From the sequence record PV173148.1: a stretch of DNA of 37,377 nt; one strand, written 5' to 3'. Each line of letters begins with the position of its first letter. The first letter of the stretch is position 1. The position numbers were made by a program, and so were the translations under genes. The notes under the pieces were generated by a model. It made no database searches. It saw only the letters and a program-made list of their open reading frames with translations, and was not told the DNA's origin. This DNA comes from Enterococcus phage vB_CECAV_04. Positions 13,201-35,025 of the stretch are shown piece by piece.

Positions 13201-13209
13201 AAAATACTT

Positions 13210-13242
13210 TCAACGGGTTGAGATAGTTTTTCAACCCGTTGA
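13210..13242 (+). promoter_or_regulatory. Intercistronic stem-loop TCAACGGGTTG-N11-CAACCCGTTGA (11-bp perfect stem) between TMP and Dit, immediately upstream of the Dit SD.
   Basis: Seen in the sequence. No T-tract follows, so I do not class it as a terminator. Confidence 0.55.
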
Positions 13243-13260
13243 CTAAAGGAGTGATTTTAC

Positions 13261-14904
13261 TTGTATCAATTTAGGGATGTCGAGCAATCTAGAAAAGATA
13301 GCAACCTTTCAAGTGAAAGTTTTACTTATAACGGAGTATACTTTGAAAACGTTATCGAAGGTTATAAAACCTTGAAAGTAACGGGGCGAGAAAGCTTTCA
13401 AAAAGAAATTAACAGCGAAGTAATCGGACAAACAGACGGAGAATTTTATAACTATTCTAGGATTGCCAAAAGGGATATTGCTATCACTTTTCAATTGAAA
13501 GCGAAAACACCTAATGACTTGATGAATAAATTTACTCAACTAAACAAGTTATTAAAAAAGGATAATGCAAGGCTGATTTTTACTGATGAAAGCGACAAAT
13601 ATTTTAACGCTACATTTGTTCAAATGGAAAATGTAACCGAAGGAACATTAATGTTGACAGGAACAATGTTGTTTACTTGTCTCGACCCTTACAAATATGA
13701 TGTAAACGCAAAAACTCAAACATTGACAACGGGGAAAAACTATATCGAAGTCAATAACGAAGGAACAGCGCCTACCTTCCTAGATGTTAGGGCCGAAATG
13801 TTATCCGATAATGGTTTTATTGGGGTTGTAACTGACGATAGGTATTTTCAACAGGGCAACCCTTATGAAAATGACACGGTCGGTCTAACACGCTCGGAAA
13901 CCTTATTAAACGCTAACCATTGGCAAGGTGGAACAACCACTATATCGGGGGTAGCGCCACGGGTAAATAGCAATGCTTATTTAGGGAAGGCTTATCAGAA
14001 TTTTTACGCTTTAAACCAACAACCATCAATAGTCGATATTCCCAGCATGGACTATCCAACAAGACCGGGTGAGCAAGGTATACAACATTTGAACGCAATG
14101 AAAGTATTAACCGTTCAAAATAACTTTACCGACAATGTCACGGGTGGTCAAAATTATCAGGGAACTGGTTTGAGTTGGGAAATTCCTAACGATACTCAAG
14201 GTGTAAAAGGTGCAGTAAACTTTAGATTTTTATTCGCTTTATGGTTTGAAACGGCCTACATTACCGAAGCAAGCTATATGCAGATATCTTGTATTGACGA
14301 ACACAACAATACAATGGTCAGCGTTGAGTTTGTAAAAGATACTATCAATAACAATAACGCCAATATGATTGTTAAACGTTACTCAACTGACTCAAGTTTT
14401 TCGAGCAACCTTTTCACCGAAGTAATAAGAGTACCTTTTCAACCAACTTATTGGAACGATTTGACTAACTGTAAATTGCGTGGCTTCTCAATTAGTAAAC
14501 ATGGTTCAGATGTGACGGTTACTTATCCTACTAATGCTATATCTTTCGCACTACCTGACTTTAAAAACGTAGCTTGTAAACATATCTCAGTATTTATCGG
14601 GCGAAAAGCACCACTGAATAACGCAAATATGTTAACACGCCGATACATTACTGATATGATTTTCATAAAAGATAACGTAAATTATACCGAGGATGTTCCT
14701 AACTTTTTCTATAATGGTTCAGTTTGGGAACTAGATAGCAGTAAGAACGAAACCCGAATAAACGGTACACCGAATAATGTCATGCGAGACATAGGTTCGC
14801 AACCTATTGTTATACCAACGGGAACAAGTAAGGTATATTTTGGGGTTTCAAACTTTGCAAAAATGCCGAATATAACTGTTTCATATCGACAAAAATATTT
14901 ATAA
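13261..14904 (+). CDS. Distal tail protein, Dit (547 aa). The long form probably carries an inserted carbohydrate-binding module.
   Basis: Position directly after TMP. TTG start 8 nt after AAAGGAGTG. The length is well above a minimal Dit. Confidence 0.7.
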   Translation: MYQFRDVEQSRKDSNLSSESFTYNGVYFENVIEGYKTLKVTGRESFQKEINSEVIGQTDGEFYNYSRIAKRDIAITFQLKAKTPNDLMNKFTQLNKLLKKDNARLIFTDESDKYFNATFVQMENVTEGTLMLTGTMLFTCLDPYKYDVNAKTQTLTTGKNYIEVNNEGTAPTFLDVRAEMLSDNGFIGVVTDDRYFQQGNPYENDTVGLTRSETLLNANHWQGGTTTISGVAPRVNSNAYLGKAYQNFYALNQQPSIVDIPSMDYPTRPGEQGIQHLNAMKVLTVQNNFTDNVTGGQNYQGTGLSWEIPNDTQGVKGAVNFRFLFALWFETAYITEASYMQISCIDEHNNTMVSVEFVKDTINNNNANMIVKRYSTDSSFSSNLFTEVIRVPFQPTYWNDLTNCKLRGFSISKHGSDVTVTYPTNAISFALPDFKNVACKHISVFIGRKAPLNNANMLTRRYITDMIFIKDNVNYTEDVPNFFYNGSVWELDSSKNETRINGTPNNVMRDIGSQPIVIPTGTSKVYFGVSNFAKMPNITVSYRQKYL

Positions 14905-14984: not shown

Positions 14985-17900
14985 ATGGCTCAAACATGGA
15001 CTATCTCAGATAAAAACTATGTAATGCTAGCACAATTTACAAATGAAGATAGTGATTTTATTTCTAATGACGAGCATTTCATTTCAGTCGATACGCCTTC
15101 CAGTTACTACCAATTTGACTGCTTGATTAACCACGAACTCGCAAAACACATTGCGGTTGGTAATCATGTTATTTTGAGAGATAAAGAAGACTATATACAC
15201 GACTTTACTATTAGAAAAATTACAACAGATATAAACAACGTTCGTATGACTGTTTACGTTGAAAACGGTGGCATGGACTTAAATAACGAAAGCGCACAAC
15301 CTTTTTCAGCGCCTAGTGAACAAAAAACGCTAGAATGGTATCTCACGCAACCGGGGCAACCATTGTATGATAGCCCGATTAAACTAGGGTTAAATGAGTT
15401 ATCCAATTTAAAACGTGTTATTTCAAATGATAGCACGGAAACAAAGTTGCTACAGCGTTTAATAACAACGGTTAACGCCTTTGATGGTGGCGAGTACCGA
15501 CTTCACGCTAAGTTAGCGAACAATAATACAACGTTGCCAGTTTTGAATTTACAGCTTGATATCGTTAAAAAATTGGGTTCAGATATTTCACAAACGTTCT
15601 TAATTGACGATTACAACTTGAAAGAACTGACAAATGAAACAAGTATTATCGATTTGATAACAGCTGTTTTTCCACGTGGTAAAGAGTTGGAAAATGGGAC
15701 AGTTGTTGATATATCAGACATCGTTTATGATGATGGAACATACTATACCACTAAAGGCAGTCAATATATTAAGAACCGAAAAGCGCATAGTGAATGGTCG
15801 TATAGTCGCTTTAGTAATGATGAACGTTGGGGCTACATTTTGGGTAACTTCGAATACGATACCGAAAGCCCACAAGAATTATTTAATCGTGCTTTAACGT
15901 ACTTGAAACAACATGATTCGCCAACCGTTGCATTTAGTGCAAGTGGTAGAGATATGAACGCTAAATTAGGCGATACAATTATGATTGCTACTCATAAAAC
16001 GCCAGACCCGATTTATTTGAGAGCAAGAGTGTTACAAATGAAAATCTCCTACGTTGACAACGATAAAACGGAGTACATTTTGGGCAACTTTGCTATACAA
16101 CCAAGCATGGTTTCTCAAGAGCTATTAAACCTTAGAAATCAGATTCAAGATAACAAAGTAGGTTATGTTTGGTTGCGCTACGCTGACGACCGAGAAGGTA
16201 ACGGTATAAGCGAAAACCCCGAAGGGAAAAGCTATTTAGGTATCGCTTACAATATGCCATACCCCGAACCATCAAACAACCCTAGCGATTATAATTGGTC
16301 GCTGATTAAAGGAACAAACGGTTCAAATGGCGCCGATGGTGTAGGGGTGCAAACTTCCAATGTTCAATATGCTTTGGGCGATAGTGGAACAACAGCGCCG
16401 ACAACGGGTTGGACAACGAACATACCAACTTTACAAGATAATAAATATCTTTGGACAAGAACAATTATCTATTACACGAACGGAACAAATAGCGTTTCTT
16501 ATAGTGTTTCTAAAAAAGGCGATAAAGGCGAACAGGGTATTCAAGGGACTAAAGGCGCGGACGGGCGAAGCCTTTATACTTGGTTGAAATACGCCGATGA
16601 TGTAAACGGAAATGGTATGAGTGAAACGCCTGACGGTAAAAAGTACATTGGACTTGCATATAATAAAACTGTATCAACAGAAAGTAGCAACCCTAGTGAT
16701 TATACATGGTCGCTGATTCAAGGCGAAAACGGGGTAAAAGGGGAAGACGGAAAAACCTACTATACATGGGTAAAATATGCCGATACGTCAACGGGGGCGG
16801 GTATGAGTGACAACCCTACGGACAAGAAATATATCGGACTTGCTTATAATAAGACAACCCCGACTGAAAGTACAAATCCTAGCGATTATCAATGGGCTTT
16901 GATTAAAGGTGATAAAGGCGAACAAGGGGAAACAGGAAACGGTGTATCATCAACCGTTGTCAATTACGGTATCTCGACGAGTGGAACTGTTCAGCCTACG
17001 AGTTGGGGAACAAGTATTCCTAGTGTACCGAACGGGCAATTTCTTTGGACACGAACCGTAATGAATTACACGAACGGAACAAGTACAACATTTTACAGCG
17101 TGGCTAAAATGGGCGAAACGGGTGCAAAAGGTACAATGGGAATTGCTTACTTGCAACCGACAGCGCCAACGGGGGACATTGAAACGGGGTCTACTTGGTT
17201 TAAAACTGTTTCCACAACTGACAAGCGTATCACAAGCATTTATCATTATTTGTCGGGTTCTTGGGTACAGAACCAATTCACACAAGACGCTATTAATGTA
17301 AAAAGTTTGAGTGCTTTGAGTGCCACGCTAGGGAATGTTACCGCGGGTACTATCACTGGTTCGAGCTTTACTACAACGTTCGACAGACCGTACACGGGTA
17401 CCACAAACCGAGTTGGTTCGCTTGCGATAAACGATGGTAAAATACGTATTGATTACAAAGACCGTAACACGTCAACAGGGGAAGAAACTGCGACTAATTC
17501 TTACATGGAATACAGCGAAACGGGAATTGATTTTGCTGAAAATGACGGAACTGCAACAGGCAAACGGCTAGAATTGAATAGCAATAGAATTGCTTTAGGC
17601 GCTAGTAACGGTTCTTTTTATGCAGACCCTAAAAAAATGACGTTATCGGGCGATGGTTATTTTGAGTCGCGACCAAGATATTTTCTAGGTTCGAGCGGAG
17701 ATACGAACTATCAGAAAATGTCTTGGACAGTTGACGGGTTCGAGTTGCGACCCGTTGATATCTACGGCAACCCTAGAAACGGAAACACGGGTGTTGAAAT
17801 AACTGGGACTATGTCGTATATTGACTTTAAAACACCATACAATGGTGCACAAGACTACGATATACGATTCATCGAAGATAGTAGCAAAATATTTACTATT

Positions 17901-20440: not shown

Positions 20441-20462
20441 AACATGAGAGGTGGTTAAGCAA

Positions 20463-21260
20463 ATGACTAAATTTTATAAAGGCATTGCCGGCGCAAGGGG
20501 TTCAGCGCCTTTAGGAATTGTATTCCATAATGACGCCGGCTCACAAAATGCCAATGCGAATTTTTACCGAAATTGGTTACCTACTCATGACGCTGAAAAC
20601 GGGTTCGCTCACTACTATGTAGCGTCAGATGGTACTTATCAAGCCGAAGATGAAAAGAACATGGCTTGGCATACGGCAAACTCAAACGGTAACGCAAACT
20701 ATATCGGTATTGAAATTTGTCAATCAATGGGCGATGAAAAAACATTCCGTGAAAATGAACAAAAGGCTTTCAAACTTGGTGCTGAAATTTGCAAGCGCTA
20801 TGGTTGGGTGCCGAATTATAGCCTTTTTCCACTTCACAAGGAATTTTCATCGACTGATTGTCCACACCGTTCAAGTGAGTTGCACGGGCAATCAGTACAG
20901 GCAGTAAGGCAGTATTTTACCGACCAAGTTATGAAATATTATAACGGACAAGGCAATACTAATACACAAACAAATAACAAAGGGGGAATCGCGACTATGT
21001 ACGCTATTTATTGGATACCGAACAAGACTGGTAAAGGGGAAGACGCTTATTTCTTTAACGGGGTAGCTTATGAATATATCAACCACCCTGACGTCATCAA
21101 TATCTTAAAACAAGTTTACCGAGATAACAACGGGAAAGATATTCCCGAATATCATTGGAAAAATGGTGCGCCGTGGTGGATTAGATTAGAACAGCCTATT
21201 GTCAATCTTCAAGACATGGCTAACAAGATTGACAAAATTGCCAAGAAAACTGGTGCTTAA
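20463..21260 (+). CDS. Endolysin. N-acetylmuramoyl-L-alanine amidase (Amidase_2/PGRP fold) with a C-terminal cell-wall-binding domain (about 265 aa).
   Basis: Motifs HNDAG, AWHTANSNGNANYIGIE and SSTDCPH (zinc ligands) are characteristic of Amidase_2. ATG after a GAGAGGTGG SD. Confidence 0.85.
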   Translation: MTKFYKGIAGARGSAPLGIVFHNDAGSQNANANFYRNWLPTHDAENGFAHYYVASDGTYQAEDEKNMAWHTANSNGNANYIGIEICQSMGDEKTFRENEQKAFKLGAEICKRYGWVPNYSLFPLHKEFSSTDCPHRSSELHGQSVQAVRQYFTDQVMKYYNGQGNTNTQTNNKGGIATMYAIYWIPNKTGKGEDAYFFNGVAYEYINHPDVINILKQVYRDNNGKDIPEYHWKNGAPWWIRLEQPIVNLQDMANKIDKIAKKTGA

Positions 21261-21281: not shown

Positions 21282-21373
21282 GGCTTTAAAATCGTTTATA
21301 AGGCGTTTTGTTAGCGTTGAGTATAATTAGCCTAGCTAATTGTCAAAACGCCTTAGAACGCAAAATAAGAGCC
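21282..21373 (+). repeat. Structured element R1-A. Inverted-repeat arms TAAGGCGTTTT (21299-21309) and AAAACGCCTTA (21345-21355) flank a 35-nt loop containing TGaGTATAAT. A conserved tail CTTAGAACGCAAAATAAGAGCC follows. It is homologous to 37078-37167.
   Basis: About 75% identity to the second copy. 11-bp perfect IR. Confidence 0.65.
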
Positions 21374-21400: not shown

Positions 21401-21853
21401 ATGTTTATTGAAAAATTTAGCGCACTAGTTAACAATAATTATTTTATTGTTTTTATGGTGCTAGTATCGTTCGACTATATCACGGGGGTCGCTAAGTCTA
21501 CCATTTGGAAAGTGACAGATTCAGACGCAAGTATCAAGGGTATTATTAGACATACGATTGTTCTTCTTAGCGTTGCTTTGATATGGGTAGGTTGTCAGTT
21601 GTTCGATGCTGAATACCTAGCATTTACGATTAATATTATGTATTGTTTGAATTATTCTTTAAGTATTTTAGAAAACTTTGGGGTTATGGGTATCTATGTT
21701 CCTAAATTCCTACAGAACAAAATCGAAGCTGAAATCAACCGATATGAGCAACAGCTCGAAAACAAGTTAGATAACAAAGACTTGAGAAATAAAAAATCTA
21801 AAACAGATGTCAACATCAATATTAGTCACGATAAAGAGCAAGATAACAAATAA
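21401..21853 (+). CDS. Holin (150 aa). Multiple TM helices and a charged C-terminal tail.
   Basis: Hydrophobic segments (FIVFMVLVSF, IVLLSVALIWVG, YCLNYSLSIL) and a Lys/Asp-rich C-terminus. Adjacent to the lysin. Confidence 0.75.
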   Translation: MFIEKFSALVNNNYFIVFMVLVSFDYITGVAKSTIWKVTDSDASIKGIIRHTIVLLSVALIWVGCQLFDAEYLAFTINIMYCLNYSLSILENFGVMGIYVPKFLQNKIEAEINRYEQQLENKLDNKDLRNKKSKTDVNINISHDKEQDNK

Positions 21854-21860
21854 CACAAAC

Positions 21861-21889
21861 TTGACAAATGGAAGTGATTAGGGTATACT
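21861..21889 (+). promoter_or_regulatory. Promoter TTGACA-N17-TATACT immediately after the holin, reading into a non-coding region.
   Basis: Consensus -35 with 17-nt spacing. Confidence 0.55.
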
Positions 21890-21941
21890 ATTATCAAGGT
21901 TACTTTTTCTTTTTCTGTTTTGTTTCTTTTCTTTCTGTGAA

Positions 21942-21980
21942 TACCGTTGAGCGATTGCTTGACGGTATTTTTTGTTTTTC
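21942..21980 (+). terminator. Hairpin ATACCGT-N14-ACGGTAT followed by TTTTTTGTTTTT. It could terminate a short CU-rich transcript started at 21861-21889.
   Basis: 7-bp stem and a long T-tract. Confidence 0.4.
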
Positions 21981-22004
21981 GGGGTTGGTTTGTTTTCAGG
22001 GTTT

Positions 22005-22305
22005 GGACAAAATTAAGCTGTTAATGGACAAAATTAGGACAAAAAATGTAAGCGTTTTTGTCCATGACTTTCAGAGCCAAGAAGCCTTATTTCATGGTCT
22101 TTTTTCTTTCTTTTTAAAAGAAAAAGGACAAAGGACAAAAGATATAAGCAATTAGCATATACTGAACAAAAAGAAAAAAAATTTTTGTTTTACACTTGCT
22201 AGAAAGCGACTGAAAAATATTTTTGTTCCGTCCCTGAAATCACGCAACCCCTTGAACCACAACGGTTTGAGCATGGGACAGAATCACTCTATTTTGTTCC
22301 AAAGC
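22005..22305. repeat. Second iteron/operator array. GGACAAAA at 22005-22012, 22027-22034, 22037-22046, 22116-22122 and 22123-22130. TTTTTGTCC at 22055-22063, forming the dyad GGACAAAAAA-N8-TTTTTGTCC. Variants TTTTGTTCC at 22221-22229 and 22293-22301, GGGACAGAA at 22276-22284. A/T palindrome at 22088-22117.
   Basis: Same motif family as 120-282. It also shares CCCTGAA and GGACAGAA strings with region 1. Confidence 0.7.
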
Positions 22306-22356
22306 TTGAAATTTTGATAAAATTTTCGGTTTTGGCAACTTTTTTGTAAGCAACCC

Positions 22357-22385
22357 TTGTATAGTTTTTGCCTGTATGGTATAAT
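22357..22385 (+). promoter_or_regulatory. Promoter TTGTAT-N17-TATAAT (extended -10 TGgTATAAT), the first early promoter.
   Basis: Hexamers and spacing. Confidence 0.6.
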
Positions 22386-22416
22386 GGAATTATCAAACGA
22401 AAAGGAGAAACAAAGC

Positions 22417-22923
22417 ATGATAATTGAAATTGACTTTAAAGAACTAGCTAAAAGACAAGGGGAAGTTTTGAACGTACACCCCTATGAAATTTTTTATGAA
22501 CATAAGAAATTCTTAGATAGTTTAGTTAGGACTGTTTTGGTTGAAAGCGAAGAAATGTATAACTTTACCGAAGAAGCAAAAGCAACGTTTGAAGAAGCAC
22601 ACGAAATATTAATCGGTATTATTAGTGATTTGAACACCAAGACAAATAAACGCCTTGAAAACGAAGTATTTAAGATGTGGGTACCTAAATATAGAGAAAT
22701 CGCTGATATGCTACTAATTACGGGACTAGATGGTATCAGCAAGGCTTGTATTTTAGCCAATGAAAATTGGTTTGAAGCAATTGATACAGACAAGGAATTT
22801 GAAGAATATTACCTTGATAAAACCGAACTGGAAGAAATTCCATTTATGGAATACGTTGAAACTTTAGTATTATTAGTCGTATTGCTTGAAAAAGGTATTG
22901 AAAAATGTAATGCTAGAAATTAA
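22417..22923 (+). CDS. Highly acidic early protein (about 168 aa). Candidate host-takeover or DNA-mimic protein.
   Basis: ATG after an AAAAGGAGAAA SD. Very high Glu/Asp content. No recognisable motifs. Confidence 0.6.
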   Translation: MIIEIDFKELAKRQGEVLNVHPYEIFYEHKKFLDSLVRTVLVESEEMYNFTEEAKATFEEAHEILIGIISDLNTKTNKRLENEVFKMWVPKYREIADMLLITGLDGISKACILANENWFEAIDTDKEFEEYYLDKTELEEIPFMEYVETLVLLVVLLEKGIEKCNARN

Positions 22924-22956
22924 TTTGAGTACAACGCTGAAAAAATTAAAAATCTA

Positions 22957-22985
22957 TTGACTTTGAAATTCAATTGAGATATACT
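22957..22985 (+). promoter_or_regulatory. Promoter TTGACT-N17-TATACT (family AATCTATTGACTTT).
   Basis: Hexamers and spacing. Confidence 0.55.
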
Positions 22986-23004
22986 TAAAACAAGCTAAGG
23001 TAAA

Positions 23005-23048
23005 CCTTGACAAATAAAACAAGTCAAGGTCTAGCCTTGACAAATAAA
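23005..23048 (+). promoter_or_regulatory. Operator-like site. CCTTGACAAATAAA is directly repeated (23005-23018, 23035-23048), with dyad CCTTGAC-N11-GTCAAGG (23005-23029), in the leader of the next gene.
   Basis: Seen in the sequence. Confidence 0.5.
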
Positions 23049-23066
23049 CAGAAAGAAGGAAACAAA

Positions 23067-23633
23067 ATGACAACTAAAGCACAAGAATGGAAATCAATTG
23101 CTACAATCAAAGGAATGGTAACGGCTCAACTAACTTACAGCTTTCGAGACATATCATTCGCCCTTAAAGATTCACCGATTAACGGAACTGATTTAGTTGA
23201 CGAAATCATTCAATCAATGCTCGATAAAATCGAAGTCATTGATAACATTACTAAAATCGCAAAAGAGAAGCGCAAAGAAGAACTAGCAAACGCTATTCAA
23301 GGGGTATTATCAGCTGTTGGTTATGGTTTACTAATTATCGACTTTGAACGCGGTAAGATGGCTGAAAACGTGACTGAAAGTGCGTTTCATGTATTCATTG
23401 AAGGTTATAAGGTAGCACGAAAAGCGATTTTAACGTATACAGACTTTGAAAGCGTACTCGAATACCTAGACCTCTATGGCGCATACTTGTTTAACTTCGA
23501 TATTTTCTATGAAGATATGATTGAAACCGTTGAAGATATGATTGAAACCGTTGAAGAAAACGACAACGTAATTGAAACATTAGAAAATTTGAAAGCCGAG
23601 TTTGAAAAGCTAGGGGTAAAATTTGACGAATAA
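23067..23633 (+). CDS. Hypothetical early protein (about 188 aa) with an acidic C-terminus. It contains an in-frame 21-nt perfect duplication (23511-23531 and 23532-23552, EDMIETV x2).
   Basis: ATG after GAAGGAAA. Confidence 0.6.
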   Translation: MTTKAQEWKSIATIKGMVTAQLTYSFRDISFALKDSPINGTDLVDEIIQSMLDKIEVIDNITKIAKEKRKEELANAIQGVLSAVGYGLLIIDFERGKMAENVTESAFHVFIEGYKVARKAILTYTDFESVLEYLDLYGAYLFNFDIFYEDMIETVEDMIETVEENDNVIETLENLKAEFEKLGVKFDE

Positions 23634-23888
23634 ATTAAAGTCTTAATGAAAAGCTAGGGCGAAACCTAGCTTTTCATTTACGCTGAAATTTATACAATTT
23701 TGTTTAAATATTCATTCAAAATGAATAAAATAATTTATCCGAAATATAATTTTTTTTTTTATTAAAGTCTTAATGAAAAGCTAGGGCGAAACCTAGCTTT
23801 TCATTTACGCTGAAATTTATACAATTTTGTTTAAATATTCATTCAAAATGAATAAAATAATTTATCCGAAATATAATTTTTTTTTTTT
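23634..23888 (+). repeat. Perfect tandem duplication of a 127-bp unit (23634-23760 and 23761-23888). The only difference is the length of the terminal T-run. Each unit carries a terminator hairpin AAAAGCTAGG-GCGAAA-CCTAGCTTTT (23649-23680 and 23776-23807) and a dyad TATTCATT-CAAA-ATGAATA.
   Basis: Seen in the sequence. Confidence 0.85.
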
Positions 23889-23898
23889 CAAAAAACTA

Positions 23899-23926
23899 TT
23901 GACTTTTCAATTATCCTTGATATAAT
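23899..23926 (+). promoter_or_regulatory. Promoter TTGACT-N16-TATAAT (extended -10 TGaTATAAT). Family motif AAAAACTATTGACTTTT.
   Basis: Hexamers and spacing. Confidence 0.6.
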
Positions 23927-23959
23927 GAAACCATATCAAACAGAAAGAAGGAATAAAAC

Positions 23960-24247
23960 ATGATGGACTTAATTATTGTAGCAATGGTAATCATTCAAGG
24001 ATTATCACTTTTTTTCACTTTTTACACGCTTGTTAATATCGACAAAAAGAACCGAGAAATCAAACGATTGAGAAATCAAGTGAAAATGTATGAGAATTAC
24101 GCATACGGGTTAGAAAAAGAACTAGTAACACTTGACAGCACTAAGTCTGAATTGGCTAGTAAGTTATCAGTTACCGAATATATGCTAGAAGAACAAGCCA
24201 AAATGCTTACTGAGCCACAAACAAAGAAAAAAGGAGTTAAAAAATGA
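23960..24247 (+). CDS. Hypothetical protein (95 aa) with an N-terminal TM helix followed by a coiled coil.
   Basis: ATG after GAAGGAATAAAAC. Hydrophobic segment LIIVAMVIIQGLSLFFTFYTLV. Confidence 0.6.
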   Translation: MMDLIIVAMVIIQGLSLFFTFYTLVNIDKKNREIKRLRNQVKMYENYAYGLEKELVTLDSTKSELASKLSVTEYMLEEQAKMLTEPQTKKKGVKK

Positions 24248-24420
24248 ACGGATTTTTATATATTTTGAACATTATTCTTGATATTGTATCGAATATATTT
24301 TTTGCACTGTATATCTTTATCGGTGCTAGTGTGATTACAACAATGGGGACAGCTATTGTGTTCACAGTGTGCTTTGTACTTATCCAATTGATACAGGGGT
24401 ACCGGCGCTATGTTAATTGA
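24244..24420 (+). CDS. Small hydrophobic membrane protein (58 aa, two predicted TM helices).
   Basis: ATG in an ATGA overlap with the upstream stop. SD AAAGGAGTTAAAAA. Not in the ORF track because it is shorter than 60 aa. Confidence 0.5.
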   Translation: MNGFLYILNIILDIVSNIFFALYIFIGASVITTMGTAIVFTVCFVLIQLIQGYRRYVN

Positions 24421-24498
24421 GTTTTACATGATTTTAGTGGTGGGAACCAAGCTACTATCAGAATTAAATATTATATTGTACGAAAAAGGAGTTAAAAA

Positions 24499-24663
24499 AT
24501 GATTATTGCAATTTTACTATTCGCTTTAATAGCGTTTTTATCATTGGATTTAATTGTAGCAGGTTTACAATTTGTTTTTATCGTTATCGGAGCGCCGTTC
24601 GTTATTATTTATCAACTATTGAAACTACTTTTTAGCAAAGGAAAGAAAGCCGATGAAAGCTAG
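24499..24663 (+). CDS. Small hydrophobic membrane protein (54 aa, two predicted TM helices).
   Basis: SD and spacer identical to the preceding small gene (AAAGGAGTTAAAAAATG). The stop overlaps the next gene's start. Confidence 0.5.
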   Translation: MIIAILLFALIAFLSLDLIVAGLQFVFIVIGAPFVIIYQLLKLLFSKGKKADES

Positions 24664-25090
24664 ATATGAAGATATACGAGAATTATTAAACGATTATCCT
24701 TACGCTAGTGGTTGCCTTGATGAAATCGACATCGACGACTTGCGAACAGGGGATACATTGGCATTTACTGATGAAGATGTAGACGAAGGAAGAACCGAAA
24801 TCCTTTTCAAAATACAGGACTTTGGAATTAAACGCTTGGGACGTATAAATTATATTGTCATCAACGGGTATTGGTGCTACTACAAACTAACCAAGCTCGA
24901 CAAGTTAAACGGCTTGAAAACATACGAAATAAAGAAGGGTTGGAACTTTCTTGAAGGTACTGCTAGGTACGCTTACAGCTTTGAAGCAAAAGTATTTGAA
25001 AACGAAGCGCTTTACGTTGATGAAATAGAGAAAGACGATAATGATAATAATTTTATCGAAAATATGTTCAATGAGTTGATGAAACCATGA
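24653..25090 (+). CDS. Acidic hypothetical protein (145 aa).
   Basis: ATG with an AAGGAAAGAAAG SD. Asp/Glu-rich. Confidence 0.6.
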   Translation: MKARYEDIRELLNDYPYASGCLDEIDIDDLRTGDTLAFTDEDVDEGRTEILFKIQDFGIKRLGRINYIVINGYWCYYKLTKLDKLNGLKTYEIKKGWNFLEGTARYAYSFEAKVFENEALYVDEIEKDDNDNNFIENMFNELMKP

Positions 25091-25302
25091 ATGTTTACGT
25101 TATCGCCAAAATATCTGAAAATGGCAGAGTTTATTATCATTCAGGGGGCAACGCTTTTAACAGTAAGGTTGTTACCCGATTATACAACGATTTAAGAACG
25201 GCTAAGATACAGCTTGATAAAGTTAGACAAGGTTTGGAAAAACCTGAAAGCGTGGTACTAGTGGGTTATCGTGCTGAAAATGGCAAAGTGTTACCATTTT
25301 AG
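25087..25302 (+). CDS. Hypothetical protein (71 aa), translationally coupled through an ATGA overlap.
   Basis: ORF-track support only. Confidence 0.5.
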   Translation: MNVYVIAKISENGRVYYHSGGNAFNSKVVTRLYNDLRTAKIQLDKVRQGLEKPESVVLVGYRAENGKVLPF

Positions 25303-25347
25303 TTTAACAATTGAATATTTTAATGCTAACCTAATAAATAGGTCAAT

Positions 25348-25400
25348 CCCTTGTCTGTACTTGATACATAGCTATGTGCTAACGACAAGGGTTCTTTTTA
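25348..25400 (+). terminator. Terminator-like hairpin CCCTTGTC...GACAAGGG with a long loop that contains the palindrome CATAGCTATG, followed by TTCTTTTT.
   Basis: 8-bp stem. T-tract. Confidence 0.45.
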
Positions 25401-25413
25401 ACACAGGGGGCAA

Positions 25414-25665
25414 ATGATGAAAGAAATAGTATTATACACCAAAGATAATTGCCAAGCTTGCAGATTGATGAAAGCGCAACTTGACAAGCTGAACGTAAAT
25501 TATAAAGTTGAAAATATCCTTGAAAATGAAGAACAATTAGAATATTTTCGTTCAATTGGTATTTTACAATTACCGATTTTAACAATTGATAAAACCGTTG
25601 AAGCCTTTGGTATGCGAGTTGATAAAGCCAAAGAAGCGCTGAAAAATCACGGAATTATTGAATAA
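25414..25665 (+). CDS. nrdH: Glutaredoxin-like protein of the NrdH-redoxin type (83 aa) with a CxxC active site (CQAC).
   Basis: Size about 80 aa. N-terminal CQAC in a thioredoxin-fold context (VLYTKDNCQAC...). It is flanked by terminators and has its own SD. Confidence 0.65.
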   Translation: MMKEIVLYTKDNCQACRLMKAQLDKLNVNYKVENILENEEQLEYFRSIGILQLPILTIDKTVEAFGMRVDKAKEALKNHGIIE

Positions 25666-25670
25666 TGCTG

Positions 25671-25704
25671 AACCCGTTGCAGATGGTAACGGGTTTATTT
25701 TCTT
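25671..25704 (+). terminator. Terminator AACCCGTT-GCAGATGGT-AACGGGTT followed by TATTTTCTT.
   Basis: 8-bp perfect stem and a T-tract. Confidence 0.65.
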
Positions 25705-25769
25705 ATAACGAGTGCAAAAAGTTATTGTAGATACAAGAAAATATTTTAAAATTTTTTGCAAAAAAACTA

Positions 25770-25798
25770 TTGCTTTTAACTTGCGACCATGCTATTAT
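25770..25798 (+). promoter_or_regulatory. Promoter TTGCTT-N17-TATTAT. Family motif AAAAAACTATTGCTTTT.
   Basis: Hexamers and spacing. Confidence 0.5.
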
Positions 25799-25851
25799 AA
25801 GAATGTAGTTGATGACTACTAAAATAATTCTAAGAAAGAAGGAAAATAAAA

Positions 25852-26703
25852 TTGACTAAGGTATATAACGGGAACAATTGGAATATCGTAGAAATAGAAA
25901 CAACTAGAGAACTAGAAAACTTTCTAAGCGCCCCTATCTTAAAGGGGCGAGATAATGCGAGCGAAACTGGTAGTAAGTCCTTTACAGGGACAACTAGCTT
26001 TGAACAAGCAGACAATTTGAGAAGAAAAGGCGACAAGAAAAGTCTAGCAATGCTGAATGAGTATAAAATTAAGTTTGATAAATACATTCAGTATAATAAT
26101 GGCTGCAAAATTAAACAACGGAATGACATACACGGGTTCGTACCAATTGTACCGAACGCTATTATAGGGCTTCCTTTGTCAATGATTAATCAGACAAGGG
26201 AAGCTAAGAAAGTAAAGGGCATTGATATATTTTTCAACGTATCAATAAGGTGTGCAACTGGAACAGACGACATAGCCCGAAAAGGTGCTATCATGTTATC
26301 ATTGATAGACGCACTTGAAAGAAAAGGTTTTCGAGTGAATCTAAAAGTGGGCAGTGTTTGCATGAAAGGGAATACGGTTCACGGGGTTATAACCACTATG
26401 AAACGGTATAATGAACCATTGAACATTAGAAAACTAGCTTACTACCTTGTAAACCCTAGTTGTTTGAGAAGAACGTTTTTCAGATTAAAAGAAACTATAT
26501 CCGAACTTACAGACGTAACCAATGACGGTTATGGTACTAACAATAAATTTGACAAACAACGAAAACGATTGAAAGCTATTTACGGCGAACAACTAAGAAT
26601 AGTAGATAGCAGTATTATGGAAAACACAGATATTTCAGACAATGAACTGTTTGAAAAAATGTGTCAAGTGCTAGGGGTTGAAAGTACCACGATTTTAAGT
26701 TAG
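25852..26703 (+). CDS. Hypothetical protein (283 aa). TTG start after a GAAGGAAAATAAAA SD.
   Basis: Long ORF. I recognise no motif. Confidence 0.55.
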   Translation: MTKVYNGNNWNIVEIETTRELENFLSAPILKGRDNASETGSKSFTGTTSFEQADNLRRKGDKKSLAMLNEYKIKFDKYIQYNNGCKIKQRNDIHGFVPIVPNAIIGLPLSMINQTREAKKVKGIDIFFNVSIRCATGTDDIARKGAIMLSLIDALERKGFRVNLKVGSVCMKGNTVHGVITTMKRYNEPLNIRKLAYYLVNPSCLRRTFFRLKETISELTDVTNDGYGTNNKFDKQRKRLKAIYGEQLRIVDSSIMENTDISDNELFEKMCQVLGVESTTILS

Positions 26704-26708
26704 ACTAT

Positions 26709-26740
26709 CAAACGGTTGGGCGATTGCTTGACCGTTTTTA
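26709..26740 (+). terminator. Terminator-like hairpin AAACGGT-N14-ACCGTTT followed by TTTTTA.
   Basis: 7-bp stem. T-tract. Confidence 0.45.
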
Positions 26741-26812
26741 GTTTGCTTGGTTTTCCTATTTTAACCAGTTGAAATTTTTCTCAACTCAGTTGAAATTTTT
26801 TGTAAAAACTAT

Positions 26813-26840
26813 TGATTTTTAGTTTTAACCATGATATTAT
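26813..26840 (+). promoter_or_regulatory. Promoter TTGATT-N16-TATTAT (extended -10 TGaTATTAT). Family motif AAAAACTATTGATTTTT.
   Basis: Hexamers and spacing. Confidence 0.55.
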
Positions 26841-26843
26841 ATA

Positions 26844-26866
26844 TTTGTGGTTGAGATAACCACAAA
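26844..26866 (+). promoter_or_regulatory. Perfect dyad TTTGTGGTT-GAGAT-AACCACAAA between the -10 and the SD of the ATPase gene. It is either an operator or a 5'-UTR hairpin.
   Basis: 9-bp perfect inverted repeat seen in the sequence. Confidence 0.55.
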
Positions 26867-26891
26867 GAAACAAGAAAGAAGGAAAACAAAC

Positions 26892-28301
26892 ATGACTGAT
26901 AAAGAAAAAGAACTAGCTAGACAATTGAATGTTGAAATGTTAACAACACTAGGTTTCAACAAGAAGTACGGGTTATACTTTGATAGCCTAGAAAAGAAAA
27001 ATAAGATGTACGTTGGATATACAGGCTTAAATGCTAAAGGCGAATATTTGAAATTGCATGAATATCCAAGTCTTGAATTTATCGCCTGTACTCAAGACGG
27101 TAATTCTAAGCCTTTTAACGAGCAACTAAAGAATCGTTTGTGGCAATACGTTGACAACTTGATTGAAAGCACAGACTATGGACACAGATTTATTTCAACG
27201 CAACAAGAACCACAATATCCAATGGTACAAACAGAAAAACAAGAACAACAAGAAAAGAAAGTGGGACAAACAGAAATGACAAATGAAATCAAAGAATTAC
27301 AGCAATCTATCCTTGAAATGCAAAAATCAATGCTTGAAGGTTTCAAGGTAGTAACCGAGAAAAACCCTTATGAAAAAGCAATTGTTGACGCTATTATCGA
27401 CAAAGGAAAATCTATTTCAGTTGATGAACTCAAAGAAGATATTCTTAAGATGGTAAATGAGTTTATCAATAGCGAATACGGTAATCTACCAACAACAATT
27501 GAAATAAAGAAGGGAAGTGAAAGAAAGCAAGTAAAAGGGAACTTTCATAAAGACTTTGAAAAAATTCTCAAAGTTGTTGACGCTAATGTTCCTGTAATGT
27601 TAGTAGGTCGCGCCGGTTCAGGTAAGAACCACACACTTGAGCAAGTCGCAGAAGCGCTTGACCTTGATTTTTACTTTAGCAACGCCGTAACTCAAGAATA
27701 TACACTCAAGGGTTTCATAGACGCAAACGGACACTTCCATGAAACACAATTCTATAAAGCTTTCTCTCAAGGCGGAATGTTCTTTCTTGATGAAATGGAC
27801 GCAAGTATTCCCGAAGCGCTTATTGTATTGAACAGCGCGATTGCAAACGGCTATTTTGATTTTCCAATCGGGCGAGTTAGAAAACATGAACGCTTTAGAG
27901 TTGTTTCAGCAAGTAACACATGGGGAACGGGCGCGAATGCAATATATATCGGCCGCAACCAACTTGACGGGGCAACGCTTGACCGTTTTGTTCAAATAGA
28001 ATTTGACTATGATACCGAGTTAGAACGTGGCTTTACAAGCGATACAGACTTGTACGAATTTACAATTGACTTGAGAAAGGCTATCGACAAAACACAAACA
28101 AGGGCGATTGTATCCATGCGAGCATTGCTAAACGCTGACAAGTTAAACGGGACACTTCCAATTGATGAAATTATTAAATCTGTTTATATTAAGGGGATGA
28201 ATAAAGCTGACTTAGATATTATACTTGATGAAATGAGAACTGACGACAAGAACAAGTATACAGCCGAGTTAAAAAAGATTGTTAAAAACATGGAAGATTA
28301 A
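26892..28301 (+). CDS. AAA+ ATPase of the AAA_5/MoxR-like type (about 469 aa). Walker A GRAGSGKN and Walker B FFLDEMD lie in the C-terminal half. The about 240-aa N-terminal extension has no recognised motifs.
   Basis: P-loop and hhhhDE motifs with the correct spacing. ATG after GAAGGAAAACAAAC. The ORF-track GTG start at 26847 sits inside the upstream dyad. Confidence 0.7.
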   Translation: MTDKEKELARQLNVEMLTTLGFNKKYGLYFDSLEKKNKMYVGYTGLNAKGEYLKLHEYPSLEFIACTQDGNSKPFNEQLKNRLWQYVDNLIESTDYGHRFISTQQEPQYPMVQTEKQEQQEKKVGQTEMTNEIKELQQSILEMQKSMLEGFKVVTEKNPYEKAIVDAIIDKGKSISVDELKEDILKMVNEFINSEYGNLPTTIEIKKGSERKQVKGNFHKDFEKILKVVDANVPVMLVGRAGSGKNHTLEQVAEALDLDFYFSNAVTQEYTLKGFIDANGHFHETQFYKAFSQGGMFFLDEMDASIPEALIVLNSAIANGYFDFPIGRVRKHERFRVVSASNTWGTGANAIYIGRNQLDGATLDRFVQIEFDYDTELERGFTSDTDLYEFTIDLRKAIDKTQTRAIVSMRALLNADKLNGTLPIDEIIKSVYIKGMNKADLDIILDEMRTDDKNKYTAELKKIVKNMED

Positions 28302-28351
28302 TCAGGGGGCTTGATAGCCCCTTTTATAGCATGATTGAAAGGAGTAACCGA

Positions 28352-29494
28352 ATGAATACCTTTAGAGAACACGTTGAAAAACGAACAAAGGAAAGACAAC
28401 TAGCAATTAACAATGACAATTACAGCATTAGCCCTCGTTACGAACGCCCCTTGACAAAAGAAACGTATGAACAACTCGAGAACTTGAAAACAGTTGCGAT
28501 TGATAAAGGGCGAGCGATTGCTGAAGATTTTTATATTCGCTACTTTGACCCGGATAGGCGAGCAATAGAAATGTGTTTCATGGTCGATGATGAAAGTGAT
28601 GAAGAACTTGAATATTTATTGGAATGTTTAGGCTTTGATACTGAATTAAAAGAATTATTGGAAACACTTTACAACATTATTTACAAGGAAGAAACGGTAT
28701 TTGAAGTCATTGTAACACCTTTTGTTTACGGTACGAACAATCGCGAGTTCGGTGGTATATTGGTCGATATAGAAAACTCAAGTGGTTCGATTATCGATAT
28801 TGTATGTTATGATACGGTATCTGGTTTTCAACAAATGTTTATGGGTACTGATTTTACAAGTGAATTTTTTCAAATACCCTATGTTAGATATATCCTTAAT
28901 GCTTTTTTATTTGAAGCGTTGACAGTGCCGATAATAAAATATTGGTATCAATGCGAAAAAGATTATCATTTATCCTTAACAACGGGCTTTGGTGGCGAAC
29001 CGAAACGATTATTGAAACACGATAGCTACATTGACGATATTGCCGAATGGCTAGACAACTACCATAAAGGAGAGTTCACACTAACTAAAAAACTTGGAAG
29101 TAGGGTTGTTGACGGCGAATGTGCCAAGTTACTCGTTGAGTTGAATAATAGCAAAGTCAAATATTGTATTTTTTACAACAGGAACAAAGCCCTTGCGAAT
29201 CTTGTTTACGATAACAGACGCTATGACCAGATTACTTTTTCAGCGTTTAATGAATCAGATAAAAAAGAAGTTGTCAAGATACTATATGCTAGACTGATAA
29301 CTGATACAATTGTCTTTAATTTTGGGGTATACAACAAACAATATCCACTATACGGTATTGATTGGAAGCAGTTTTTGACAACGGTTGGTATACCAAGCAA
29401 TATAATAGATTTATCAGACGATAACTTCATGTTCGAAATTGAACAAAACAACCGATTATTAATGCAGATATTACAAGATTATCAAAACAATTAA
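28352..29494 (+). CDS. Hypothetical protein (about 380 aa), adjacent to the ATPase and probably its partner. A possible degenerate MIDAS-like DIENSSGS segment is noted, but I have little confidence in it.
   Basis: ATG after a GAAAGGAGTAACCGA SD. No firm domain recognised. Confidence 0.55.
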   Translation: MNTFREHVEKRTKERQLAINNDNYSISPRYERPLTKETYEQLENLKTVAIDKGRAIAEDFYIRYFDPDRRAIEMCFMVDDESDEELEYLLECLGFDTELKELLETLYNIIYKEETVFEVIVTPFVYGTNNREFGGILVDIENSSGSIIDIVCYDTVSGFQQMFMGTDFTSEFFQIPYVRYILNAFLFEALTVPIIKYWYQCEKDYHLSLTTGFGGEPKRLLKHDSYIDDIAEWLDNYHKGEFTLTKKLGSRVVDGECAKLLVELNNSKVKYCIFYNRNKALANLVYDNRRYDQITFSAFNESDKKEVVKILYARLITDTIVFNFGVYNKQYPLYGIDWKQFLTTVGIPSNIIDLSDDNFMFEIEQNNRLLMQILQDYQNN

Positions 29495-29517
29495 ACAAAA
29501 TAATTCTAAAATAACCA

Positions 29518-29549
29518 TTGACTTTGCTTTAATCAACGGGTATGATAAT
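29518..29549 (+). promoter_or_regulatory. Promoter TTGACT-N17-TATGAT(AAT).
   Basis: Hexamers and spacing. Confidence 0.5.
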
Positions 29550-29577
29550 GTTATCAACAAGAAAGGAATGAAATCAA

Positions 29578-30078
29578 ATGAAAGATTTGACAAAACAAGA
29601 ACATTACACGAATAATGGAATTGAACCAATCGAAATCATGCGAAAAAACTTCTCTCATGACGAATTTATAGGTTTTTGCAAAGGTAACGTTTTAAAATAC
29701 CTTTTGCGCTACAAAGACAAGAACGGCTTGGAAGATTTAGAAAAAGCGAAAATTTATCTAAATTGGTTGATTGATGAACTTGTAGCAGAAGATTTGAACA
29801 AGACCTTTGATGAACGCTTTGAAGAAATCGAACGAGAAGAACGAGAGAAATGCTCTTGTGGTTGTCATTGTGAAGATTGCAAAGACTATGACGGTTGCGA
29901 AAGTTTTGGCGTACAATTGTCATTGTTTGATAATGAACCAATGGAAGAACCTTCAATTGTTTCAACCAATGATTTTAAAGAAGCAGACCTAACTAATGAA
30001 AAGTGTGAAGAACCAAGTAACTTTGAAAAATACTTAGCTTGGAAACAAACGCTTGACGAGTGGAGAAAAGGCGAGTAA
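29578..30078 (+). CDS. DUF3310-like phage protein (166 aa) with a Cys-rich segment CSCGCHCEDCKDYDGCE and an acidic C-terminus.
   Basis: The N-terminal signature (HYTNNGIEPIE...GNVLKYLLRYKDKNGLEDLEKAKIYL) resembles the DUF3310 family common in phage replication modules. Confidence 0.55.
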   Translation: MKDLTKQEHYTNNGIEPIEIMRKNFSHDEFIGFCKGNVLKYLLRYKDKNGLEDLEKAKIYLNWLIDELVAEDLNKTFDERFEEIEREEREKCSCGCHCEDCKDYDGCESFGVQLSLFDNEPMEEPSIVSTNDFKEADLTNEKCEEPSNFEKYLAWKQTLDEWRKGE

Positions 30079-30116
30079 TTATTTTTAACAGAAAGGAAAG
30101 AAACGGGTGCCGATAA

Positions 30117-30452
30117 ATGAAAATAGGAAACAGAAAAATTATCCATAATCAACCACTTGATGAAGAATCAATGGAAAGATATGAAAAATTTTGCTTGCAT
30201 TTATTTGACAAACTATCGAGACAACAATTCATCAAACACATAAAAATGAAACGCTCAAAACAGAGTGAAGCTTGCTATTATCGAGTATATGGCTATCGTG
30301 GGGGAAGATATGAATTTAGTATTAGAAATCATGATAGCTTTTCGGATTGTAGACAAGAGAATATTTACCTAGATGATTTTGATAGCTTGCGAGAATTGGA
30401 ACATTGGGCTATTAAGGTAGCAAGAAATAGAATTTATAAACAAGAATATTAA
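30117..30452 (+). CDS. Hypothetical basic protein (111 aa).
   Basis: ORF with a GGGTG SD 7 nt upstream. The in-frame stop immediately upstream fixes the start. Confidence 0.5.
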   Translation: MKIGNRKIIHNQPLDEESMERYEKFCLHLFDKLSRQQFIKHIKMKRSKQSEACYYRVYGYRGGRYEFSIRNHDSFSDCRQENIYLDDFDSLRELEHWAIKVARNRIYKQEY

Positions 30453-30501
30453 ACAAACAGAAAAGAAAAGCGACCTTATCAATTGATAAGGGGGCTATAT
30501 T

Positions 30502-31131
30502 TTGAAATATGAAATCATTGCAACAGGAAGTAAGGGAAACGCCGTTTTAATCAATGATATATTGGTTGATTGTGGTATCCCTTTCAAACGCTTAAAACCG
30601 TATTTATACGAAGTAAACACACTTTTAATCACTCACGAACACAGTGACCATGTGAAAGCAACAACTTTGAGAGCAATTAAAAAGTATTTTCCTAACATTC
30701 AAGTGGTAGCTAATTACATGGTTAAACAGCTATTCCCTAATTACGTTGATTTGACCGCCAATGGGGGTGTACCTTTGTTCACACAGTCGGGAATTATAAC
30801 CCCGTTTGATTGTGTGCATGATGTTGATTGCTTGGGGTATACATGGATAGTTGACGGGAAAAAGGTTGTTTATGCGACTGACACAAGTACAATGGACAAT
30901 TGCCCCGTTGATATAGCTATTGACTATTGTTTCTTGGAAGCTAACTATGATGAAATCAAGGTACAGCAGATAGTGCAGAATACAGATATGTTGAAAAAAT
31001 ACGGTTACGACATTAGAAAAGGTACTGTGAGGCACTTTTCAAAACAGCAATGTAAATCATTTTTCTACAGAAACCGTGCCGACGAAAACAGCCAATTGAT
31101 ACAGTTACACCAAAGCGCAAGATTTTATTAA
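30502..31131 (+). CDS. Metallo-beta-lactamase-fold hydrolase (209 aa) carrying the HxHxDH motif (HEHSDH).
   Basis: Motif THEHSDH plus downstream conserved His/Asp residues. TTG start after AAGGGGG. Confidence 0.65.
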   Translation: MKYEIIATGSKGNAVLINDILVDCGIPFKRLKPYLYEVNTLLITHEHSDHVKATTLRAIKKYFPNIQVVANYMVKQLFPNYVDLTANGGVPLFTQSGIITPFDCVHDVDCLGYTWIVDGKKVVYATDTSTMDNCPVDIAIDYCFLEANYDEIKVQQIVQNTDMLKKYGYDIRKGTVRHFSKQQCKSFFYRNRADENSQLIQLHQSARFY

Positions 31132-31156
31132 TACAGTTAGAAAGGAAAGATAACAA

Positions 31157-31954: not shown

Positions 31955-31982
31955 AATAAATTAAAAAAGTTTGAAAAAAGTA

Positions 31983-32010
31983 TTGACTTTTGAATTAAGC
32001 AATGTATAAT
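31983..32010 (+). promoter_or_regulatory. Promoter TTGACT-N16-TATAAT. Family motif AAAAGTATTGACTTTT.
   Basis: Hexamers and spacing. Confidence 0.55.
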
Positions 32011-32084
32011 AGGTAGTGTGATAAGGAAAACAGGAACTTATCACACTAACAAAAATTTTTAAAACCGAAAGGAAAGATGAAATT

Positions 32085-32729: not shown

Positions 32730-32807
32730 CCTTTGAGAAAATAAAATAGCATAAAGCCCTAGCTAGTATGGTTAGGGCTTTAATATTAAAAGAAAGGGAC
32801 TGTTCAA

Positions 32808-34980: not shown

Positions 34981-35025
34981 AATCTTGTGTTTTACACGCC
35001 TGAACTAAACAGAAAGAGAAAGGAA

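Follow-up and report, generated by a model that had tools for sequence, protein, structure and literature searches.

Origins of replication have rarely been mapped in the virulent phages of Gram-positive bacteria. In phage P4, initiator iterons occur at two separate loci, ori and crr, both of which are required in cis, and crr consists of two direct repeats of 120 bp, some kilobases away from ori. Lactococcal phage c2 has a single, intergenic origin between gene blocks, with a strong promoter and a short non-coding transcript that is thought to prime replication. The P4 alpha protein is laid out as a primase, a superfamily 3 (SF3) helicase and a C-terminal winged helix (PMC2777425). The origins of staphylococcal pathogenicity islands (SaPIs) consist of 6-12 short iterons flanking an A/T-rich centre just downstream of rep, and the C-terminal winged helix of the self-loading Rep proteins recognises iterons of 5-6 nucleotides (PMC9371898). 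The virulent siphovirus SPP1 carries two origins of similar organisation, oriL and oriR, ~13 kb apart on its circular genome; each comprises direct repeats and an A/T-rich unwinding element, one is intergenic while oriL lies inside gene 38, and the second origin is proposed to block forks and thereby set off the change from theta to concatemeric replication (PMC6316719). In this study, we analysed the 37,377-nucleotide sequence of Enterococcus phage vB_CECAV_04 (PV173148.1), referred to as the window, and characterized a non-coding element, R2, that lies between the lysis and early genes and has an inverted counterpart, R1, at the other end of the early genes. With a confidence somewhat above even, and arguing from sequence features and from analogy with these systems, we propose that R2 is an iteron-type origin module, either a second origin or an auxiliary initiator-binding site.

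R2 is an inverted paralogue of R1 over its whole length. By BLASTN, 22303-22002 aligns with R1 (37341-37377 continuing into 1-277) as an uninterrupted inverted repeat with 74.8% identity over 318 nucleotides (E = 2.8e-52), and this is the sole long inverted repeat joining distant sites in the genome. The original prediction had described the region as a second copy of a control region, which holds for the entire element, as the similarity is continuous and inverted and extends beyond the shared motifs. The window is circular or circularly permuted, since two related contigs are unbroken across its end and start, and on this circle R1 and R2 delimit arms of 22 kb and 15 kb. The window contains 16 copies of the heptamer GGACAAA; shuffled sequences contain 7.6 +/- 2.5, and none of 100 shuffles reached 16. 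All but four of these copies fall in two clusters of ~150 nucleotides, six at 22005-22139 and six at 129-274; R1 and R2 thus each contain six exact copies, together with about four that have one mismatch.

The architecture of R2 is iterons 1-4, a middle block of 32 nucleotides, an A/T-rich palindrome, a tandem iteron pair, an A/T run and a conserved tail (Table 1). The start-to-start spacings of iterons 1-3 are 21 and 11 nucleotides in R2 and 19 and 11 nucleotides in R1, near whole helical turns in both, and the boxes of iterons 1-4 are kept in R1 and R2 of related phages. The dyad GGACAAAAAA...TTTTTGTCC lies at 22037-22063, as had been reported. Three GGACAAA copies had been placed together at 22027-22046; two are there (starting at 22026 and 22037) and the third starts at 22005. 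Two further positions needed to be shifted, that of GGACAAAGGACAAAA from 22116-22130 to 22126-22140 and that of the A/T palindrome from 22088-22117 to 22097-22129. This palindrome is a candidate unwinding centre, and a block of 44 nucleotides at 22082-22125 is complementary to 156-199 at 91%. In the tail, a near-invariant TAGAAAGCGAYTG and an AACCC-TTGA motif stand alongside degenerate iterons.

Each copy is conserved in its own right. R2 sequences were sampled from five related metagenomic phages and R1 sequences from three, whose neighbouring proteins share 70-98% identity with their counterparts in the window. When all copies are aligned jointly, those of R1 cluster together and those of R2 do likewise, with identities of 84-91% among R1 orthologues, 69-84% among R2 orthologues and 63-72% between R1 and R2, within or between genomes. 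Because R1 and R2 form separate orthologue groups, the duplication is older than these phages, and no concerted evolution of the two copies is seen. These orthologue and paralogue identities, together with the variable outer spacers, indicate that each copy is under purifying selection of its own, R1 more tightly than R2. Mean pairwise conservation is 0.5-0.87 in the R2 element and falls to 0.43-0.56 in the spacers at 21981-22003 and 22311-22356; the poor conservation of sequence just outside R2 sets its edges.

Elements with the same layout, built on other iterons, accompany the replication genes of more distant phages. Judged by polymerase and primase (35-40% amino-acid identity), the closest named phages are P35 and P40 of Listeria and a pair of temperate Staphylococcus phages. 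Inverted repeats pair 16023-16252 with 35605-35376 in P35 (84%) and 16078-16187 with 35376-35267 in P40 (77%). In both genomes the copies occupy the same two junctions as in the window, one between the holin and early genes and the other between the end of the early genes and the small terminase subunit gene, terS. The iterons are TTGAACA in P35 and GGTAAC in P40, but the layout is that of the window, with an A/T-rich centre and, on the early-gene side, a tandem iteron pair and a CCC-TTG-type motif. The tandem pair reads GTGAACGTGAACAG in P35, GGTAACAGGTAAC in P40 and GGGTTACATGTGGTTACA in the temperate Staphylococcus phage HHU-22, and one is also present in a metagenomic relative, L018. No description of the P35 and P40 repeats was found in the literature searched. 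In L018, whose primase is 48% identical to that of the window, an element with TTGTATC iterons lies just past the primase gene, and in the temperate phages HHU-22 (GGTTACA) and phiST9-C (GTAAC) a single element lies one or two small genes past it; HHU-22 contains neither a second iteron cluster nor an inverted repeat. The element thus accompanies the replication module across genome layouts, which argues for a role in replication rather than in packaging or in a function specific to the junction of lysis and early genes. Other searches did not extend the set: megablast of the region against isolated phages gave no match, a search for the three-iteron pattern in one genome per prokaryotic species gave a single, unrelated match in a Bacteroidota metagenome bin that was otherwise unlike the window and pointed to neither a host nor a satellite, and a scan of IMG/VR with an AAA_5 ATPase alignment found no further lineages.

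The candidate reader of the iterons is a primase-helicase of the P4/SaPI type, the roughly 450 homologues of which are annotated as 'phage/plasmid primase, P4 family'. Its sole sequence match in the PDB is 7OLA, PriRep5 of SaPI5 (E = 4e-11), and 7OLA is also the best fold match of its AlphaFold2 model (predicted local distance difference test score, pLDDT, 87.5), with a target-normalised TM-score (TMt) of 0.73. In this model the C-terminus, residues ~560-663, is a winged helix, with a helix-turn-helix and a beta-hairpin at 584-637, so that the protein combines the SF3 helicase core and C-terminal winged helix of such initiators. The last ~100 residues are the most divergent part of the protein between phages with different iterons; P35 and P40 share an identity of 0.25-0.29 here, compared with 0.48-0.77 elsewhere in the protein. 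Where relatives share the iteron, identity is 0.98 over residues 561-610 and 0.85 over residues 611-663, the latter reflecting differences in C-terminal length. This pattern is consistent with the diverging C-terminus being the specificity domain for the iterons, a correlative argument from sequence comparison.

The SaPIs are among the closest described systems. Their origins match R1 and R2 in having short iterons (6-12) that flank an A/T-rich centre, and their initiators, like the phage protein, unite a primase, an SF3 helicase and a winged helix at the C-terminus in a single polypeptide; in both, the iteron sequence varies between lineages. SaPI origins lie downstream of the initiator gene (PMC9371898), as R1 does loosely and R2 does not. 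R1 begins ~360 nucleotides past the stop codon of the primase-helicase gene, R2 lies 12.7 kb upstream of that gene, and the P35 and P40 copies are away from it. Also unlike a SaPI, the window has two inverted copies, 15 and 22 kb apart on the circle, and its element is longer (~300 bp), with an extra conserved tail and mixed iteron orientations. The resemblance to SPP1 lies in the presence of two separated sequences of similar organisation, each with repeats and an A/T element. However, SPP1 gp38 works with a DnaB-type helicase and a loader and belongs to another protein family, and the elements are not homologous; since no gp38-like protein is found among the window proteins, where the candidate initiator is of the P4/SaPI type, SPP1 serves as an analogy and not as a family to which the window belongs. 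With P4 the window shares a primase-helicase with a winged helix that would serve two iteron loci, binding being predicted in the window, but R2, unlike crr, is one inverted copy of the whole of R1, and P4 has a different kind of primase domain. The c2 origin is comparable in lying in an intergenic stretch between blocks of genes in a virulent phage that infects lactic acid bacteria, whereas the candidate short RNA of the window would terminate before the iterons and is absent from R1.

We infer that the primase-helicase binds the boxes and that replication is initiated at one or other copy. In the proposed mechanism, the C-terminal winged helix would recognise the GGACAAA iterons, and the protein would assemble on the iteron sets that flank the A/T-rich centre, melt this centre and load itself; it would then prime synthesis, and the DNA polymerase would extend the primers. 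The position of R1 downstream of the initiator gene and its stronger conservation make it the probable primary origin. R2 might fire as a second origin or might be a second high-affinity initiator site, in which case it could help R1 in cis, like crr of P4, or stall forks and contribute to the switch to concatemers, as has been proposed for oriR of SPP1. The original prediction had offered a long structured leader, a non-coding RNA, a second origin and the operator bank of an early/late switch as alternatives. The second origin is the option we favour, because R2 has iterons around an A/T-rich centre, like elements lie by the primase gene in related phages, and the phage encodes a PriRep-like initiator with a winged helix; a long structured leader or non-coding RNA is unsupported and the operator bank is weakened, as set out below.

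Several observations weigh against an origin at R2. One bidirectional origin should suffice for a phage, and a need for R2 is then not apparent. The A/T centre of R2 is outside the 12 least stable 60-nucleotide stretches of the genome, and of the two elements only an A/T run of R1 is among them, so that the idea of a stability minimum holds weakly and for R1 alone. The iterons of R2 read + + + - to the left of the centre and + + to the right, followed by degenerate copies in the order +, -, +, -; both orientations are thus present on each side, but they do not form two clean opposed sets, as in the simple SaPI rule of at least two iterons per side that face in opposite directions. The elements of P35 and P40 do not adjoin the primase gene, and in the metagenomic relative L017 no iterons directly follow it. 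In P35, moreover, the A/T centre contains promoter-like TTGAAC-17-TATAAT sites in which the -35 hexamer overlaps an iteron, as would fit an operator, and in its second copy such sites are antisense to the end of the early genes. Finally, the N-terminal region of the primase-helicase also diverges between phages, and the divergence of its C-terminus is a correlate of the change in iteron.

Because the R2 centre is not a stability minimum, the orientations are mixed, P35 has internal promoters and the P35 and P40 elements are distant from the primase gene, we retain as the main rival the possibility that the boxes are an operator bank, in which a phage transcription factor bound to GGACAAA at both junctions would coordinate the promoters at 21861, 22357 and 332 in an early/late switch. 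Both copies do lie in large intergenic regions, the same two in which the main consensus promoters are found, the -35 hexamer of the P35 sites lies inside an iteron, and iteron specificity varies by lineage, as it does in pairs of operators and regulators. We nonetheless consider this unlikely, since the boxes lie ~220-350 nucleotides upstream of the early -35 hexamer and ~58-205 nucleotides upstream of that of the 332 promoter and overlap no conserved promoter, and an internal -10-like TATACT at 22158 is not kept, the relatives having TATGTA, TATACA or TATGCT. Moreover, the copies are inverted although transcription is unidirectional, the elements of the temperate Staphylococcus phages adjoin the primase gene far from the lysis and early junctions, and in L017 the element is apart from the promoter of the putative gene-401 homologue. 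A candidate regulator was not found in the window. A more speculative idea, which we think improbable, is that the inverted orientation is itself functional. In the window lineage, P35 and P40, the tandem iteron pair and CCC-TTG motif of the copy between the lysis and early genes face the early genes, and the other, inverted copy therefore faces them from the opposite end. The initiator-bound elements might then be a polar pair that splits the circle into early and late arms and acts as a fork trap or barrier timing the change from circle-to-circle replication to concatemers, as two directional origins, or as handcuffed sites that couple replication to the early/late programme, with the short RNA described below in the same control unit.

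The remaining rivals concern RNA, recombination and packaging. That R2 is a structured leader or a long non-coding RNA transcribed from 21861 would agree with the single-sequence fold of the + strand of 21981-22356 (z = -4.6) and with the lack of a credible open reading frame (ORF) in the region, including the break in the window of an ORF that a relative has over R1. However, the promoter is separated from the region by a conserved 14-bp terminator and T run, the - strand, too, folds more stably than shuffled sequences (z = -2.4), as DNA palindromes would, and R1 would be transcribed as the complement. RNAalifold over nine copies gave -4.8 kcal/mol with a covariation term of 0, and Rfam returned nothing at its gathering thresholds and only chance-level matches at permissive E-values; R2 contains no RNA-structure signal in these analyses. 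The absence of covariation and of an Rfam match points to a function at the level of DNA, and the RNA reading, now extremely improbable, is largely refuted by computation. The inverted repeats of the yeast 2-micron plasmid drive a switch of replication mode by recombination, and R1 and R2 could likewise be recombination sites that flip the early or late arm or drive such a switch, given that they split the circle into 22 kb and 15 kb and that the arrangement is kept in P35 and P40. We regard this as very improbable. No recombinase gene was recognised among the window proteins or in the Pfam lists of the relatives' contexts, 75% identity with indels is poor for homologous exchange, and R1 and R2 do not evolve in concert. 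The primase gene is upstream of gene 401 on the same strand wherever the upstream gene is visible, every R2 context reads holin, R2, early gene, and no inversion isomers were present in the 17 places examined in public contexts. Least probable of all is that the boxes are packaging signals of the pac or cos type bound by the small terminase subunit. R1 is ~1.5 kb upstream of terS, and P35 and P40 have one copy just upstream of it, yet headful packaging, to which the T4-like large terminase of this phage points, gives no role to an inverted second copy behind the lysis genes, and the single element of the temperate Staphylococcus phages is beside the primase gene and not beside terS.

The origin module thus remains the reading we prefer. 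Iteron origins, initiators of the SaPI/P4 type and phages with two origins are already known; what appears undescribed in the literature searched is a conserved inverted pair of origin-type elements that, in a family of virulent Firmicutes phages, brackets the structural and lysis genes while the iteron sequence changes. The assignment is concrete and testable, in a metagenomic lineage as well as in P35 and P40, Listeria phages that are in culture, and it ties SaPI-type self-loading primase-helicases to full-size lytic phages. Because both of these phages grow in culture, and CRISPR-based editing of Listeria phages is available (PMC6061871), they allow direct tests of whether the second copy is a second origin, assists the first or blocks forks and thereby sets off concatemer synthesis, as proposed for SPP1.

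Table 1. Positions of R1, R2, their parts and neighbouring features (window coordinates unless P35 or P40 is named)
Feature	Position	Strand	Remarks
R2	22002-22303	+	inverted paralogue of R1 (BLASTN against R1; alignment of 10 copies)
Iterons 1-4 of R2	22005-22063		GGACAAA at 22005, 22026, 22037 (+) and 22057-22063 (-)
A/T-rich palindrome of R2, GTCTTTTTTCTTT...AAAGAAAAAGGAC	22097-22129		13-nucleotide arms, 92% complementary; R1 counterpart at 147-184
Tandem iteron pair, GGACAAAGGACAAA	22126-22139	+	adjoins A/T centre; mean pairwise identity 0.87 across relatives
Conserved tail of R2	22164-22303		mean pairwise identity 0.78-0.79
Degenerate iterons in tail	22164, 22222, 22276, 22293	+, -, +, -	
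A/T run in tail	22165-22192		
TAGAAAGCGACTG in tail	22200-22212		near-invariant
AACCCCTTGA in tail	22246-22255		
R1, main part	1-277	-	crosses window junction into 37341-37377
R1, end of tail	37341-37377	-	other side of window junction
GGACAAA copies of R1	268, 249, 238, 219, 137, 129	-, -, -, +, -, -	
Palindrome of R1	147-184		
Primase-helicase, P4/SaPI type	34987-36978	+	663 amino acids; Pfam DUF5906 and PriCT_1
DNA polymerase	32808-34757	+	
Endolysin	20451-21260	+	
Holin	21401-21853	+	
Promoter of candidate small RNA	21861-21889	+	TTGACA-17-TATACT, 11/12 matches
Candidate small RNA	21896-21980	+	~85 nucleotides; z = -3.9; conservation 0.93 and 0.90
Early promoter	22357-22385	+	TTGTAT-17-TATAAT, extended -10 (preceded by TG); outside repeat
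Promoter 5' of gene 401	332-360	+	TTGACT-17-TATTAT; ~60 nucleotides from iteron 1 of R1; outside repeat
Small RNA analogue in P35	promoter 15857-15885; terminator 15936-15960		
Small RNA analogue in P40	promoter 15920-15948; terminator 16001-16030		

Upstream of R2, the interval 21861-21980 has the features of a candidate small RNA gene: a promoter, a predicted short untranslated transcript, an intrinsic terminator and conservation above that of its neighbours. It is the most conserved part of the intergenic region, with mean pairwise identities of 0.96 for the promoter (in five genomes), then 0.93 and 0.90, against 0.71-0.76 for the flanking genes. The predicted RNA has a CU-rich, single-stranded 5' part of ~45 nucleotides that extends to 21938, followed by a 14-bp terminator hairpin at 21939-21970 and a T run; this strong, conserved terminator is ~50 nucleotides 3' of the promoter. 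The promoter matches the original prediction, as does the early promoter (22357-22385), but the ~500 nucleotides thought to be transcribed from 21861 are unlikely to be so in most transcripts, as the hairpin and T run intervene. Because the terminator lies between this promoter and R2, most transcripts should be ~85 nucleotides long and end before R2, and from the sequence the promoter most likely yields only the short terminated RNA, leaving R2 untranscribed. An ORF reported at 21868-22155 does exist, although it starts with ATG and not with GTG. P35 and P40 have predicted analogues past the holin gene, in which a promoter leads into a short, pyrimidine-rich RNA with a CCUCC motif that ends at a terminator, and this highly conserved short RNA adjoining R2 also appears undescribed in the literature searched.

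The best predicted partner of the small RNA is the start region of the gene at 30117-30452 (30081-30140, -36.8 kcal/mol), which contains a near-perfect 18-nucleotide complement, ACAGAAAGGAAAGAAAC, upstream of the start codon. Close relatives retain this site, and their A/G changes still pair with U. A role as a general anti-ribosome-binding-site RNA was considered and rejected: start regions beat internal sites (p = 0.007), but composition-matched shuffled seeds were nearly equal to the small RNA on start regions (-15.5 +/- 0.8 versus -16.3 kcal/mol). The similarity of the CU-rich stretch to the reverse complement of the start of gene 401 was taken as a low-complexity resemblance.

The early promoter is kept in relatives in the form TGNTATAAT. 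Promoters with an A/T-rich upstream part, AAAAACCTATTGACTTT, form a family at 311-343, 22936-22968, 31962-31994 and 34931-34963; the promoter of gene 401 may not be a late one, since it belongs to the same family as three promoters of the early region. A direct repeat (77%) between 21286-21364 and 37090-37168, with a -10-like GAGTATAAT / GGGTATAAT, lies in the gap between the endolysin and holin genes and 3' of the primase gene, and it also follows the primase gene in L017 and in another relative, L019. Judging from its sequence, this repeat may be a phage-specific promoter.

The window represents a phage genome of ~37.4 kb with every gene on the + strand. The genes at 401-21853 encode the 271-amino-acid protein, the small and large terminase subunits (the latter of the T4-like headful type), portal, capsid and tail proteins, endolysin and holin, while early and replication genes occupy 22417-36978. 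There are only two long non-coding regions, 21854-22416, which holds R2, and 36979-37377 with 1-400, and no tRNAs were found in the window. The best matches of the endolysin are Lactococcus phages of the 936 type (47%), and those of the tail protein are from mixed Firmicutes. Neither Pfam nor PHROG gives a match for the 271-amino-acid protein encoded beside R1, all of whose homologues are close, and its AlphaFold2 model (pLDDT 40) is unusable for judging whether it could bind the boxes. In L017, the primase of which is 69% identical to that of the window, two tandem genes for 278-amino-acid proteins (12191-13880) come straight after the primase gene, each preceded by a promoter like that 5' of gene 401. 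They sit at the position of the 271-amino-acid gene. The R1-like sequence of L017 begins only past both of them, so the position of the element relative to the 271-amino-acid gene is not fixed.

The repeats also have a practical consequence, in that assemblies break at sequences of the R1/R2 type and gene callers place false ORFs there. In five assemblies, contigs end inside or beside R1 or R2, suggesting assembly breakage by the inverted repeat, and the public gene call of L019 includes a 115-amino-acid ORF over R1 (3107-3454) that is broken by stop codons in the window. A 17-bp hairpin, AGCCCTTTGCGACTAGT..ACTAGTTACAAGGGGCT, at 37016-37056, directly past the primase-helicase stop codon, lacks a T run and is kept in relatives. 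Elsewhere, a perfect tandem duplication of 127 bp at 23634-23887, 3' of the gene at 23007-23633, has a hairpin, AAAAGCTAGG...CCTAGCTTTT, in each copy. The heptamer CCCGTTG occurs 31 times on both strands of the whole window, against ~1.4 copies expected from composition (for example at 1646, 1666, 3435, 6164, 6185, 13211/13235, 25673 and 29534). It often takes the form ACCCGTTGA, is found in different reading frames as well as in short gaps between genes, and makes one hairpin at 13206-13241. It is not enriched in P35, P40 or the Staphylococcus phages; close relatives have 11, 16 and 8 copies where fewer than one is expected, and CCCGTTG is possibly a Chi-like or regulatory motif.

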